Position numbers and translations under genes: made by a program. This document shows, piece after piece, positions 38,581-48,346 of a stretch of 64,000 nt of DNA. Source of the stretch: Escherichia phage vB_EcoP-CHD5UKE1. Location of the stretch: sequence record NC_070989.1. One strand, given 5' to 3'. Positions within the stretch are counted from its first letter, which is position 1; every line of letters starts with the position of its first letter. The notes beneath the pieces are model-generated. The model worked only from the letters and a program-made list of their open reading frames with translations. It was not told the origin of the DNA and did no database searches.

Positions 38581-38784
38581 TTAGTAGAACGAACGAATTT
38601 CATCCCACACTTGTTCCTGTTCTTTCCTATAAAAAGAAAGTTGGGTCTTGAACATCTCCACTGATGATTCAAAGTTTTTGGTTTGTGCAGCTTCAACGAA
38701 ACGTTCATGTCGGTTGATTTTGCACCGTAGCATTAAATACTTGGCTTCAAGTCTCCGAAGAGCCTGCCTTTTCTCAAGATTCAC
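38581..38784 (-). CDS. small hypothetical protein (67 aa)
   Basis: ORF-track ORF between the GGCT-like gene and the primase-helicase gene. Confidence 0.45.
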   Translation of the reverse strand: MNLEKRQALRRLEAKYLMLRCKINRHERFVEAAQTKNFESSVEMFKTQLSFYRKEQEQVWDEIRSFY

Positions 38785-39193
38785 TTTTCAGATACTCTGA
38801 CCAGTCGCCAGATTCAACCAGAACATCTTGTTCTTCGTCGATGTGATAAATCCAAGCGATAACAGTTTTACCTGAGTCCAGCTTAACAGCAATCTGAGTA
38901 CGCTGATAGAAGCTGTCTTCAGGGCTACGTTTGTTGTAACCTTCCAGACGGTCATACGGACCTTCCAGACCTGCTTTGTCAGTAGCAAACACTTCTACAC
39001 GAACAGGCTTATTGTTATTACTGTGTGCGAGAGAGATGCTCGGGAAGTAGGAACCACCGTAACGGAACAGATCGAAGTTATCTTCAGTCCAACCTTCGCC
39101 AATAGACTTAGCACCAGCTCGATCATTAACTAAATAGTTAGCTTGACCACGACGAAGAGAACCATAAGTTGCTACGTAAATTACTTCTGACAT
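38774..39193 (-). CDS. gamma-glutamyl cyclotransferase-like protein (AIG2/GGCT fold)
   Basis: N-terminal YVATYGSLRRGQANY matches the YGSL/YGTL nucleotide-like loop of GGCT/AIG2 proteins; size 139 aa. Confidence 0.55.
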   Translation of the reverse strand: MSEVIYVATYGSLRRGQANYLVNDRAGAKSIGEGWTEDNFDLFRYGGSYFPSISLAHSNNNKPVRVEVFATDKAGLEGPYDRLEGYNKRSPEDSFYQRTQIAVKLDSGKTVIAWIYHIDEEQDVLVESGDWSEYLKSES

Positions 39194-39194
39194 T

Positions 39195-39404
39195 TTAAAT
39201 ACCTTTCCAGTCTTTCATGATGTTTTCAATGTAAGCACACTGCTGATCAGTGGCTCCTGTTACAAACACTTCTAACCCCAACTGCTCACAGAAGGGATTA
39301 AGAATCAATATTCTGGTTTGTCCATACGAGTGATGCTCTCGGTAGATAACACACCCAGCATCCCATACAGAGTCAATGGCTTTACTCAATCTTTCATGTT
39401 TCAT
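39195..39404 (-). CDS. small hypothetical protein (69 aa)
   Basis: ORF-track ORF; preceded by a strong hairpin in the 53-nt intergenic gap. Confidence 0.5.
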   Translation of the reverse strand: MKHERLSKAIDSVWDAGCVIYREHHSYGQTRILILNPFCEQLGLEVFVTGATDQQCAYIENIMKDWKGI

Positions 39405-39457
39405 AAAACCTCCAGCTTATCCGAACTAGCCTCCTCTTTCGAAGAGGCTAAAGCAGA

Positions 39458-39643
39458 TTACTCTGTAATAAAGATTTTGATTACACCGCAGATTGCTGCA
39501 CTCTCAAATACTGCAACAGCTTCACTTCCCTGAAAGAAGGCCACTTTGCCGTCAGAGAAGTTAAACATGTCAGCATCTAGGTCCATAGCTCGCATATCAC
39601 CAGCGTCGTTAGTATCTTTAAACAGAACTTTATACTTATTCAC
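39458..39643 (-). CDS. small hypothetical protein (61 aa)
   Basis: ORF-track ORF. Confidence 0.5.
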   Translation of the reverse strand: MNKYKVLFKDTNDAGDMRAMDLDADMFNFSDGKVAFFQGSEAVAVFESAAICGVIKIFITE

Positions 39644-45359: not shown

Positions 45360-45368
45360 GATAACCTC

Positions 45369-46175
45369 TTATGCTACCTGAAGGAGTTTGATCTGCTGGT
45401 CAGCTTCTTTAACGTTGTTCCCGTTAATGATTTCATGAAGCTTCTCAATCGGAAGGCGAGAGTGCAATGCCATCAGAGTGGACATATCACACTGCTGAAC
45501 AACCTTGTCAACCTGATCGTAAACAAACTTACGGTTTTCACGATCACTAATCCAGAAGTTAGACAGAGAACGGTACTCAATACCATAGTCTTTATAACGG
45601 ATTGCAGATGCTTTACCGTAGAGTTCTTTACGGCGAGTATCTTTGTCCATAATTACTGCTGGGAGAGACAGGAAGTAGTCACACAGCACACCCAGCATCA
45701 TCTGAGTTTGCAGAGTGATATCCAAAGCACCAACTACGCCAAGATGTACGTGACCACCGGCAGTACGAAGTCCCTTATTCTGAGAAGTCGGGGATGGGTT
45801 TTTCTGACCAGTGAAGGCGTTGAAATCAGGAGTGCACCCGAAGATGAACGCTGATTCATTAAAGGTCTTCATCTCTTCTTCAGTGAAGATGTGAGAGCTA
45901 ACACCCGGAGCTGTTTCCATGTCCAGTTTGTTCAGGACATTATTGGTGAGATCGATACCACGTTGCATGTTATCGTTAAACGCTTCAAAACCGCTCTGTG
46001 GGTCAATATCAAACTCAGCCAGTACGTTGTCCTCTTGGAGACGAACATCCTTAGCCAGAGCGATCTTATCGTCCTTAGAGCAGCCTAATAAACCGGCTAC
46101 AGAAGTGATGATACCATTGCTAGTACGAACAAACATTTCAGGGTCAGAGCCGATAAGGAATTTGCGCTTAGTCAT
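45369..46175 (-). CDS. hypothetical protein, possibly a second glutamine-synthetase-fold ligase
   Basis: GSDPEMFV, GGHVHLGV and YGIEYRS loosely parallel motifs in 43642..44745; weak. Confidence 0.45.
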   Translation of the reverse strand: MTKRKFLIGSDPEMFVRTSNGIITSVAGLLGCSKDDKIALAKDVRLQEDNVLAEFDIDPQSGFEAFNDNMQRGIDLTNNVLNKLDMETAPGVSSHIFTEEEMKTFNESAFIFGCTPDFNAFTGQKNPSPTSQNKGLRTAGGHVHLGVVGALDITLQTQMMLGVLCDYFLSLPAVIMDKDTRRKELYGKASAIRYKDYGIEYRSLSNFWISDRENRKFVYDQVDKVVQQCDMSTLMALHSRLPIEKLHEIINGNNVKEADQQIKLLQVA

Positions 46176-47139
46176 TGTAATACTCCACTAGTTCAGAAAA
46201 GAGAGATGAGATTGTGTTACCAACTTCTTCAAGAGTAAGACCGGAATCTGCTCCAGTTCTTTGAATCAGTCGGGCTGTAAAGTTTTGTACTGTAATGTTT
46301 CCCAACTTGTCGTCTATTGCTTCACGTTTGTGACCATAACAGTTGGACCAGAGTCTTAACCACTCTGACATTGTTTCATACTCGTCCGGGTCTTGATCTT
46401 TAGCACGAGCAAATCTTCGTAAGGCATCTTGGTTATGGTTACGAACATAACCATTCTCGTTGTCGCCAACACCGAAGGGGTTTTGAACCCATACTTGCTT
46501 CGTGTATTCATCAGAGTCTACAACCAAAGGAAGGAATGCTGCTGCTGACATATTGTTGTTAATAACAATAGAGGTGCTCTCACTACTCCCATTGGCTCTT
46601 CCTCGTTGAGACCATCCACCGAAGAAGTCACGACCCAACCCAGCTAACACTAGAGCGATGCCGATGCGTTTACGCTTCAGCCACTCTTCCCTGTCTTCAA
46701 TTCCTTCTGCTAGGAAATCCATTCCACGATATTGCCCTTCCAGAATACTACGAAAGAGCATAAGTCCTGTGAAGATCTGATCTGCTGGATGCTCACGAAG
46801 GTTGACAGCAACACTATTCGCTGAAGTGATCGTAAATACGTCACGATAGCAAGACATGGAGTTCATAATGTCTGCTGTTTCAACCAAGTTCTTTTCAATA
46901 TCAGATGCAACATGACCGTGAAAAGAGTGAGTCCAGTAATTCAACATCTCCAGTTGCAAGTTGATATCACGGTTGAAGCGACGATAACGCCCTTCTTCCG
47001 AGATAACTTCACCATTAATGTCATTTACACACTGGCCTTGCATGTAGTTGTGGATACCGAAGCACCCACGACCTAAGAACTTCTGTTCCCCTAAATCCTG
47101 TTGAAGATTAAGAGGTACGATCGTTGTGGAGATTGACAT
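46168..47139 (-). CDS. hypothetical protein (323 aa), member of the ligase cluster
   Basis: ORF-track ORF; overlaps neighbour by 8 nt. Confidence 0.55.
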   Translation of the reverse strand: MSISTTIVPLNLQQDLGEQKFLGRGCFGIHNYMQGQCVNDINGEVISEEGRYRRFNRDINLQLEMLNYWTHSFHGHVASDIEKNLVETADIMNSMSCYRDVFTITSANSVAVNLREHPADQIFTGLMLFRSILEGQYRGMDFLAEGIEDREEWLKRKRIGIALVLAGLGRDFFGGWSQRGRANGSSESTSIVINNNMSAAAFLPLVVDSDEYTKQVWVQNPFGVGDNENGYVRNHNQDALRRFARAKDQDPDEYETMSEWLRLWSNCYGHKREAIDDKLGNITVQNFTARLIQRTGADSGLTLEEVGNTISSLFSELVEYYND

Positions 47140-47149
47140 AACTAACCTT

Positions 47150-48346
47150 TTATTTTCCTAAAAATAATCCGCTCATAATACCATCCCACTCAGAGGACGG
47201 AATCACTGAATACTCCGAACTTTGGTCCAGAGTTCCGCTACTGAATCGCTGAACAATATTATAAATATTGAACATATCTTTAGTCTCAGCGCGATAAGCG
47301 TAGACTAATCTGTCAGCTGTTCTTTCATCTTTAGATACCCGACGAGCAAAGGTAACCAGAAGATTGTCACCTTTGAGTATTTCTGACTCATCTTTTACTA
47401 GATCAGGGTGCATAACCGGCAAGAACATTGAGTTGTTCACTCGTAACTCTGCTGTTTCATCATTCTCATAATGAATCCATTTAAAATCTTCATCACGAAA
47501 GTGACCGCATCCATCTCTGTATGACTGTTGACGCCAAGGCACTTGAAATGCTTCAGCGTATTTATCAGCCATGCCAACCGTAAATAGTGACGCTGGGAAA
47601 ATACAAGCATCCCAATCGTTACCAACCAGAGTTGCTTTCGTTTCGCCCAAGAGGTTAGTGTAAGTGCTAACCATTCGTGAGTAAACATAAGCCTGAAGGA
47701 TTGTCCAGCCTTCAACCAACCATTTATGGAGGAAGGTTTCAACTTGACTCTCTTCATCTTCACAATAGAAGGTTCGGTCTAACATCAAATAGAACAGACA
47801 ACGATCAGCAGGGATATTCTCAGTTGCTACCCCCATAAAACCTTTATCGTGCCAGCGTAAACAGGAGGGACGATCTTTGTCCACAAATGCTTCCATAGCT
47901 TCCAGTACAGCACGAGGTGTGGTTCGGTGTTCAGGGTTTTTGTCGTTCCAACGTTCGATGTTATTTTTAGGAGGTGTGTCTTCATCTTCATATGAACACC
48001 AACTCAAAGCTTCAGCTACGTGCTTTTCATCACGCCAACGTCTAAAGCCTAACATCTTCATATGAGTTCCAGAGTTCCAGATATGCTTAATACTGCTCAT
48101 ATCCATCTCTCGACTTAATAAGAACTCTTCCCCATCAGCACTACGAACGTTAGCATCTTCATGCCACACTCGAACGTGCATGTTCCATCCATGAGTTGCC
48201 TCATACATGTTAGGGTCGAAGTAGTCATCATCTTCGTCGTCTTCATCAACGCCACCATTATAGTTGCGAAGCTGAAGGAACCCATAACAAGGAGGGTTGA
48301 CCGTTAAAACATTACCTTCAGTATCTTCTAATGTTACTGGAAACAT
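47150..48346 (-). CDS. hypothetical acidic protein (398 aa), member of the ligase cluster
   Basis: ORF-track ORF; Asp/Glu-rich N-terminal region; no recognisable motif. Confidence 0.55.
   Translation of the reverse strand: MFPVTLEDTEGNVLTVNPPCYGFLQLRNYNGGVDEDDEDDDYFDPNMYEATHGWNMHVRVWHEDANVRSADGEEFLLSREMDMSSIKHIWNSGTHMKMLGFRRWRDEKHVAEALSWCSYEDEDTPPKNNIERWNDKNPEHRTTPRAVLEAMEAFVDKDRPSCLRWHDKGFMGVATENIPADRCLFYLMLDRTFYCEDEESQVETFLHKWLVEGWTILQAYVYSRMVSTYTNLLGETKATLVGNDWDACIFPASLFTVGMADKYAEAFQVPWRQQSYRDGCGHFRDEDFKWIHYENDETAELRVNNSMFLPVMHPDLVKDESEILKGDNLLVTFARRVSKDERTADRLVYAYRAETKDMFNIYNIVQRFSSGTLDQSSEYSVIPSSEWDGIMSGLFLGK

Follow-up and report, generated by a model that had tools for sequence, protein, structure and literature searches.

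A phiEco32-type gene neighbourhood involving the Pfam families PF14395 and PF12224 has already been described as a computational prediction (Iyer, Abhiman, Burroughs, Aravind 2009, Mol Biosyst 5:1636; its content is taken here from a citing paper), and PF14395 is named after phiEco32. The same locus, with no structural difference, lies at positions 38774-48346 of Escherichia phage vB_EcoP-CHD5UKE1 (NC_070989.1), of which a stretch of 64,000 nucleotides, hereafter the window, was analysed. The block is 97-99% identical at the DNA level to phiEco32, SU10 and Bas91: identity is 98.7% with Escherichia phage LorandFenyves_Bas91, and 97-98% with vB_EcoP_SU10 and phiEco32 (Kuravirus, Gordonclarkvirinae), placing the window in Kuravirus, and phiEco32 gp86 is the counterpart of the gene at 45369-46175. 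Altogether, 97 phage records match the block, 64 of them over at least 80% of the query. The block is read here, with moderate confidence, as a phiEco32-type amidoligase module, that is, an ancient and almost phage-restricted multi-enzyme pathway that employs gamma-glutamyl carrier or protecting-group chemistry. The module probably makes, and then removes, a gamma-glutamyl amide. To the published prediction, the present analysis adds two unassigned proteins, X2 and X3, as members of the conserved set, an exchange between two gamma-glutamyl-cleaving enzymes, gamma-glutamyl(amine) cyclotransferase (GGCT) and Peptidase_C26 (C26), and a gene order followed through at least 538 loci.

Full-text literature searches found no experimental characterisation of the module and no reported function, in agreement with an earlier interpretation of the window (the sequence-only reading), which took comparable neighbourhoods to be computational predictions only. 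The same genes are catalogued, with no function assigned, in papers that describe the genomes of LUZ24-like, PA11-like and marine phages. A passage in a paper on OM43 phages (PMC10580990) credits Iyer et al. 2009 with the proposal that the amidoligase and GATase of phiEco32 alter the cell wall to ward off superinfection.

Several characterised systems resemble parts of the module. In the Escherichia coli putrescine utilisation (Puu) pathway, the glutamine synthetase (GS)-fold ligase PuuA makes gamma-glutamyl-putrescine and the C26 enzyme PuuD later removes the glutamate, a pairing of enzyme types that modules of the C26 type also show. Unlike Puu, the module has no oxidase or dehydrogenase, its ligases belong to other GS-fold families, and it additionally contains an ATP-grasp ligase, a class-II glutamine amidotransferase (GAT), X2 and X3. 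In butirosin biosynthesis, in work attributed to Llewellyn et al. in 2007, the ATP-grasp gamma-glutamyl ligase BtrJ and the GGCT-fold cyclotransferase BtrG reportedly use glutamate as a removable protecting group for an amine. The module likewise pairs an ATP-grasp ligase with an AIG2/GGCT-fold enzyme, a kinship compared at the superfamily level only. In contrast, butirosin uses an acyl carrier protein and a pyridoxal phosphate-dependent decarboxylase; no acyl carrier protein was found in the module, where X3 might be the carrier.

Taken together, ergothioneine EgtA/EgtC and the glutathione cycle (GshA, GshB, GGT, GGCT/ChaC) cover every enzyme class of the module, namely a GCS-type ligase, an ATP-grasp ligase, an Ntn-type gamma-glutamyl amidohydrolase and a GGCT. 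Nevertheless, the module has no thiol chemistry, methyltransferase or sulfoxide synthase, and none of its NCBIfam scores comes near the family cutoffs. Among these, EgtC matches the GAT weakly (E 2.6e-4), and the glutaminase domains of the GlmS, PurF and AsnB type score better. Finally, the ribosomal protein S6 glutamate ligase RimK and the LysX/LysW amino-group carrier system resemble the module in that its ATP-grasp ligase is closest to the RimK family and a small non-enzymatic partner is encoded alongside. They differ in that no module partner has the acidic C-terminal tail characteristic of S6 and LysW and in that scores lie far below the equivalog cutoffs.

Conservation of the module and exchange of its probable gamma-glutamyl-cleaving enzyme

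The conserved set comprises X2, a COOH-NH2 ligase, X3, an Amidoligase_2 protein, a class-II GAT, an ATP-grasp ligase and a gamma-glutamyl-cleaving enzyme; X2 (323 aa) and X3 (205 aa) are members of it. Gene-neighbourhood comparison, a check suggested by the sequence-only reading, returned the same genes in the same order in distant podophages: the succession X2, COOH-NH2 ligase, X3, Amidoligase_2, GAT and ATP-grasp is kept in LUZ24, 7-11-like phages, PA11 and RIO-1. Beyond the window's own Gordonclarkvirinae, synteny was found in eight named phages of four lineages (Bruynoghevirus, Grimontviridae, Lahexavirus and Zobellviridae), in all of which phmmer and jackhmmer detected the GAT, both GS-fold ligases and the ATP-grasp protein, with X3 and GGCT each detected in six. 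The amidoligase alone retrieved 300 phage records by tblastn, with Pseudomonas (120), Aeromonas, Vibrio, Proteus, Salmonella, Cronobacter, Porphyromonas and Pseudoalteromonas among the hosts.

This distribution extends into metagenomic data, where a scan of IMG/VR with the ligase alignment found at least 538 loci. Families were counted in 87 loci, themselves retrieved through ligase matches: the COOH-NH2 ligase is present in 87, Amidoligase_2 in 86, the GAT in 84, X3 in 82, the ATP-grasp protein in 79, the primase-helicase in 52, GGCT in 46 and the small protein s77 in 24 (by jackhmmer). The order (X1)-X2-ligase-X3-amidoligase-GAT-(s77)-ATP-grasp is almost invariant, and a primase-helicase gene follows downstream in most loci that reach far enough. 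Apart from domains of unknown function, the recurrent accessory genes near metagenomic loci are of replication type only, encoding a DnaB-like helicase, a dCMP deaminase and a protein with a weak, sub-threshold match to a phage single-stranded DNA-binding family. Within a few kilobases of the module, the 7-11-like phage SE131 and the Lahexavirus LAh_9 carry genes for PRPP synthetase and nicotinamide/nicotinate phosphoribosyltransferase (NAD salvage), and an RNA ligase 2 gene is also near the module in LAh_9.

Cellular genomes give a different picture. A scan of 100,044 prokaryotic species genomes (one per species), made with two peptide patterns and thus of limited sensitivity, returned eight loci, all on metagenome-assembled genome (MAG) contigs or small scaffolds of 0.9-46 kb. 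In the six that continue beyond the ligase gene, further genes of the module are present, and the scan found the module in phage-like contigs only, with no non-phage context. As loci in prokaryotic genomes are this few and phage-like, the module is essentially phage-restricted.

The cleaving enzyme is the variable element. PA11 and CVT22 have no GGCT, and each encodes a Peptidase_C26 protein instead (E 1e-16 and 7e-18). Peptidase_C26 is the family of gamma-glutamyl hydrolase and PuuD, and the C26 proteins retain the G-x-C-x-G-x-Q nucleophile elbow and an H-P-E motif. Across the 87 loci, 45 carry only GGCT, 31 only C26, one both and ten neither; in most of these ten, the contig end cuts the module or GGCT may lie beyond the retrieved flank. 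This exclusivity persists after clustering by ligase, with Fisher p = 4e-9 at 70% identity and p = 0.013 at 50%. Within Zobellviridae, GGCT (RIO-1, 275E43-1) and C26 (PA11, CVT22) take up one and the same position, and the gene order behind it is otherwise identical. The near-exclusivity of the two enzymes points to a gamma-glutamyl-amine cleavage step. GGCT and C26 enzymes have one reaction in common, the splitting of gamma-glutamyl amides whose alpha-amino group is free, and the pathway would therefore pass through such an intermediate. On two MAG contigs, one assigned to Halobacteriales (L095) and one to Stahlbacteria (L097), C26 and GGCT both adjoin the COOH-NH2 ligase gene; X3 and Amidoligase_2 were not detected in the covered part of either contig.

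Enzyme families and partner proteins

The GGCT gene at 38774-39193 matches GGACT (PF06094) with E 3.9e-17 and 63.4 bits, against a Pfam cutoff of 22.8. Its product has YGSL at residues 10-13 and a Glu within Y-D-R-L-E-G-Y (RLEGY), which we take to be the substrate-binding motif and the catalytic residue, respectively.

Two neighbouring genes encode ligases of GS-fold families. The Amidoligase_2 protein (43642-44745) scores 33.7 bits against PF12224 (cutoff 22) and has the invariant residues E31-x-E33-x-E35, S52-L-R54, E58, H95-x-H97 and E186-x-R188. The GS/GCS-fold carboxylate-amine ligase (COOH-NH2_lig, 45369-46175) scores 34 bits against PF14395, 'Phage phiEco32-like COOH.NH2 ligase-type 2' (cutoff 25); D49, E54, H142-x-H144, R182, E200 and R202 are invariant across nine distant phages. 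Profile searches of the PDB detected no solved relative of either ligase by sequence, and the fold assignment rests on the Pfam families.

The third ligase (39895-41088) is RimK-like and of the ATP-grasp type. It matches PHROG 2599 with E 1e-187, and its AVDLIS...LEVNTAPGL aligns with GVDIL...MEVNSSPGL of Pseudomonas RimK (PDB 7qys), the Mg/ATP motif D...E-x-N. On Pfam it reaches 15.9 bits for RimK (cutoff 21) and 16.7 bits for Ddl_C (cutoff 24), while the orthologue in Cronobacter phage 009 scores 33.5 bits against RimK over profile positions 1-174 of 188. The ligase part spans approximately residues 1-280 and is followed by an acidic linker and an extra C-terminal domain at 316-397.

The class-II (Ntn) GAT (41532-43562) matches GATase_6 with E 1.1e-14 and 55 bits (cutoff 27). 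After an Ntn domain of approximately residues 1-235 come a linker, a middle domain that is conserved, and three Cys4 zinc ribbons with other sequence between them; the sequence-only reading, which described some 330 residues of zinc-ribbon repeats, was thus right about ribbons, though not about simple repeats. No known synthase domain of Pfam or NCBIfam matched the C-terminal 440 residues. Translation starts at an ATT codon at 43562, followed by TGT to give M-C-G-I-V, with a Shine-Dalgarno sequence, GGTGGA, 7 nt upstream. Removal of the initiator Met would leave the cysteine as residue 1, which is what the Ntn class requires. The same coding sequence (CDS) is annotated in Bas91, and the reading frame offers no ATG, GTG or TTG start upstream of residue 114. 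In 81 of 85 GAT homologues a Cys directly follows the start codon, which is ATG in 71, ATT in eight and TTG in two. The ATT-started genes represent at least five separate lineages (loci L010, L012-L014, L021, L031, L057 and L088), and a Shine-Dalgarno-like purine run precedes the GAT start in each of 18 sequences inspected. The 79-nt gap upstream of the gene (43563-43641) holds a GTGCC...GGCAC hairpin.

Across nine distant phages, R28-G29, G-H-x-R-x-A-T-x-G, N-A-H-P-F, H-N-G and V-D-S of the GAT are invariant. Cys1 is present as annotated in eight of them, and the ninth regains M-C-G from an upstream ATT; such a start explains why the GAT of Vibrio phage 275E43-1 was annotated from a downstream one. 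The candidate glutamine-binding and oxyanion residues R85, N96-A-H-P and D128 are likewise invariant; R85, N96 and D128 presumably correspond to GlmS R73, N98/G99 and D123. It is plausible that the GAT partners with the neighbouring GS-fold ligases as ammonia acceptors. As their catalytic motifs are intact, the three ligases and the amidotransferase look catalytically competent.

These results agree with the family calls of the sequence-only reading. Its GGCT/AIG2-like protein, class-II Ntn amidotransferase, GS-fold amidoligase and suspected second, weaker amidoligase relative (45369-46175) all score above Pfam cutoffs, and its ATP-grasp call is supported by PHROG 2599, the RimK structure alignment and an orthologue above the Pfam cutoff. 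None of the four open reading frames (ORFs) that it had singled out was placed in an unrelated family by these searches. No fusions between module families were found, long variants of the ligases, GAT and GGCT have no extra Pfam domain, and none of ten module proteins matches a PADLOC defence model.

Three large proteins have no family in Pfam, NCBIfam or PADLOC: X1 (398 aa, 47150-48346), X2 (46168-47139) and X3 (44742-45359), for all of which the sequence-only reading had also recognised none. Member-by-member scans of the X1 and X3 alignments gave nothing consistent. The X1 gene opens the series of large genes in the block, and its detectable homologues are confined to Gordonclarkvirinae, where tblastn matched 96 phage records (93 named Escherichia or Shigella, three 'phage'); its profile weakly matches the positional counterpart in SE131 (E 0.016, small database). 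That X1 and X2 are paralogues was rejected (hhalign probability 0.2%). X2, encoded directly upstream of the COOH-NH2 ligase, belongs to a conserved, fast-evolving family: an X2 profile and jackhmmer from SE131 gp122 link 33 of 70 genes directly upstream of the ligase, including the Kuravirus X2. The profile found 23 matches among 1.84 billion representative proteins, a library that carries no annotation, and for none of them could a known domain be shown; a profile search of the PDB found no relative.

The conserved X3 gene lies between the two GS-fold ligase genes and overlaps that of the amidoligase. No catalytic fold could be detected in X3, which has a basic loop, conserved and flexible, and Tudor/SH3-like barrels in its model; predicted-structure confidence is moderate for X3 (pLDDT 75) and X2 (pLDDT 68). 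On this basis, X3 is the best candidate for a scaffold, carrier or substrate. The small conserved protein s77 (77 aa, 41296-41529, found by jackhmmer), encoded between GAT and ATP-grasp, aligns with LUZ24 gp20, with R15, P18, P49, P51 and I54 invariant. Either s77 or X3 as a Pup- or LysW-like tail carrier was rejected because the C-termini of both are variable, with no conserved Gln/Glu or acidic tail.

Proposed chemistry and competing explanations

A pathway consistent with these genes would begin with the three ATP-dependent carboxylate-amine ligases, which would build a small amide-linked product holding a gamma-glutamyl-amine bond with a free alpha-amino group. The Ntn amidotransferase would then bind glutamine or a gamma-glutamyl compound, either supplying ammonia to amidate an ATP-activated carboxylate or hydrolysing the gamma-glutamyl amide. 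In a third step, GGCT would strip the gamma-glutamyl group as 5-oxoproline and free the amine, while in other phages Peptidase_C26 would do so by releasing glutamate. Glutamate would thereby act as a transient carrier or protecting group, comparable to Puu, butirosin and ergothioneine. The chemistry sketched by the sequence-only reading, in which a carboxylate is activated with ATP, an amine or ammonia is donated and gamma-glutamyl amides are cyclised or released, is consistent with all tests and is strengthened by the GGCT/C26 swap.

Several points weigh against this pathway. The GGCT/C26 pattern is phylogenetically non-independent, and few replacement events could account for it. One IMG/VR locus and two MAG variants carry both enzymes, and the C26 proteins, which resemble class-I GATs, could simply be glutaminases. 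The window's own ATP-grasp protein falls below the Pfam threshold, X1, X2 and s77 have no role assigned to them, and fold searches with the moderate-confidence models of X3 and X2 gave nothing specific.

A possible, if doubtful, alternative is that the module modifies a host or phage protein after translation, with RimK-like and GS-fold ligases (compare PafA and Dop) attaching glutamate, or a different amino acid, to a protein carboxylate or lysine. The eraser could then be GGCT or C26, with X3 as the tag, adaptor or target. The closest solved relatives of the ATP-grasp protein are indeed RimK-type protein glutamate ligases, GGACT enzymes are generally known to act on epsilon-(gamma-glutamyl)-lysine, and papers from the Aravind group propose phage peptide ligases that modify host proteins. 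The lack of a detectable catalytic fold in X3, together with its flexible basic loop, would also suit such a role. However, none of the proteins ends in a conserved Glu or Gly-Gly type tail, X3 and s77 having variable C-termini, and the candidate lysine of X3, K110, is Gln in PA11 and CVT22. Moreover, three ligases and an amidotransferase exceed the needs of known tagging systems.

A further proposal, which we consider rather unlikely, is that the module would perform carrier-assisted non-ribosomal synthesis on X3, or place a gamma-glutamyl-unmasked amide group on DNA, a nucleotide or a replisome protein, and would thereby underlie the restriction-modification (RM) resistance of Gordonclarkvirinae. 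If true, this would be a new class of phage counter-defence chemistry, common to hundreds of podophage lineages.

It is unlikely that the module gives phage DNA, or a precursor nucleotide, an amino-acid-type modification, which would account for the RM resistance of Gordonclarkvirinae. Points in favour of such a modification are that this resistance is reported to be unusual, that the module usually lies directly upstream of replication genes, that the GAT carries zinc ribbons and that X3 has a basic loop and modelled Tudor/SH3-like barrels. Nor is the genome short of EcoRV sites, of which the window holds 28 against approximately 15 expected. Other sites are strongly avoided: CCWGG occurs twice (approximately 81 expected), PstI and BamHI are absent (approximately 17 and 11), and GATC (140, approximately 249 expected), GGCC (56, approximately 109) and EcoRI (8, approximately 22) are depleted. 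The avoidance of CCWGG, PstI, BamHI, GATC and GGCC speaks against modification, since such avoidance would be expected of DNA open to restriction. CAGCAG is over-represented in the window and strand-asymmetric (29 versus 50).

The gene content and the behaviour of related phages also argue against DNA modification. The Bas91 annotation and the part of the ORFs that was profiled show no dUMP/dCMP hydroxymethylase, 5-HMUDK, aGPT-Pplase, DpdA/TGT or glycosyltransferase. The thymidylate synthase of the window is ThyX (PF02511, 1.4e-43); apart from ThyX, only a dCTP deaminase and a dNMP kinase are present. The LUZ24-like phage tf, whose annotation includes an amidoligase, a GAT and homologues of the other module genes, has DNA that HaeIII cuts, that T4 ligase seals and that could be Sanger-sequenced directly; for phiEco32, restriction profiling and subcloning served to map the termini. 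In addition, the module occurs in many unrelated phages with no reported modification. The authors of the BASEL collection linked possible DNA modification to the dCTP deaminase and a nucleotidyltransferase, not to the module block. Bulk DNA hypermodification by the module is thus unlikely and, with no base-activating enzymes, restrictable DNA in relatives and site avoidance, is the least supported of three outcomes that the sequence-only reading had considered conceivable, the others being a peptide-like metabolite and a covalent tag on a virion or host protein. The 'nucleotidyltransferase' (472 aa, 34850-36268, minus strand) has no Pfam match; by eye, its GGAVRD...DIDIF is reminiscent of the head domains of CCA-adding enzyme and poly(A) polymerase.

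That the module remodels the stem peptides of peptidoglycan or their precursors, for instance as a barrier to superinfection, is scarcely probable: the passage in PMC10580990 attributes such a suggestion to Iyer et al. 2009, the ATP-grasp protein also resembles D-Ala-D-Ala ligase, and stem peptides are generally known to hold a gamma-D-Glu amide, with MurT/GatD as a precedent for glutamine-dependent amidation, but a search of the module showed neither a Mur ligase nor any component for lipid II, export or signal peptides, GGCT requires a free alpha-amino gamma-glutamyl group that is absent from intact stem peptides, the same module is retained across hosts as different as E. coli, Pseudomonas, Vibrio, marine OM43 and the sources of archaeal MAG contigs, and the module adjoins replication genes rather than lysis genes.

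Genomic setting and biological significance

The Bas91 annotation places 13 CDS in 38774-48346, all on the minus strand. The sequence-only reading had every coordinate and the shared direction right; its tight packing also holds, with intergenic gaps of -20 to +79 nt, while its count of eleven genes falls short of the 13 annotated. Among the smaller genes is gp79 (39640-39888), embedded between the ATP-grasp and GGCT genes, which matches PDB 9m7y chain G ('gp79', residues 1-82) with E 1.1e-51 and corresponds to phi32_79 in the phiEco32 annotation. This protein is an inhibitor of sigma70-RNA polymerase (PMC8948821). Among the 87 loci it occurs only in six of Kuravirus type, and it is unrelated to amide chemistry: an embedded gene, not a pathway member. 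The cluster is therefore not one pure pathway, as gp79 and several small ORFs found only in Kuravirus are interspersed.

With gp79, a middle gene, inside it, the block is probably expressed together with the replication genes, of which the primase-helicase (36764-38554, minus strand) is the downstream neighbour. The phiEco32 gp36 promoter consensus has no minus-strand match within the block. Upstream, the largest non-coding stretch nearby (48876-49101, 226 nt) contains a hairpin at 48902-48919 (minus strand; consensus scan only), behind which come a run of T and a weak match to a sigma70-like promoter. The early genes and the module may be delimited from each other by this gap, with the hairpin as a putative terminator.

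Elsewhere in the same transcription block, ThyX and dCTP deaminase are present as the sequence-only reading had stated, and no HAD domain that would correspond to its HAD nucleotidase was found among the ORFs scanned. The ORF labelled 'phosphatase' in Bas91 (20815-21336, minus strand) matches a Macro domain (PF01661, 3e-10). Its neighbour at 19759-20151 (minus strand) reaches 27.9 bits for the SLOG-type YAcAr family (cutoff 28.2), and both adjoin an ORF that, by its position in Bas91, should be the phage sigma factor. The two may be ADP-ribose or nucleotide-signal handling proteins. Another minus-strand ORF (32733-33332), apparently the 'DNA binding protein' of Bas91, matches the Ferritin-like family PF00210 (2.8e-7), suggesting a Dps-like protein.

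A module of six to nine genes is thus kept across several podophage groups, with hosts from enterobacteria to marine methylotrophs, wherever a locus covers its genes. It is almost absent from cellular genomes, and no report of its product was found more than 15 years after its prediction. Such conservation implies an important step in the infection cycle, and the exchange of GGCT for C26 confines the chemistry to a route through a gamma-glutamyl-amine intermediate. As the module is carried by LUZ24 and by two phages able to plate on E. coli K-12 whose O-antigen has been restored, Bas90 and Bas91, it is now genetically and biochemically testable. Solving it would give a function to two uncharacterised Pfam families, PF12224 and PF14395, as well as to two unannotated protein families.

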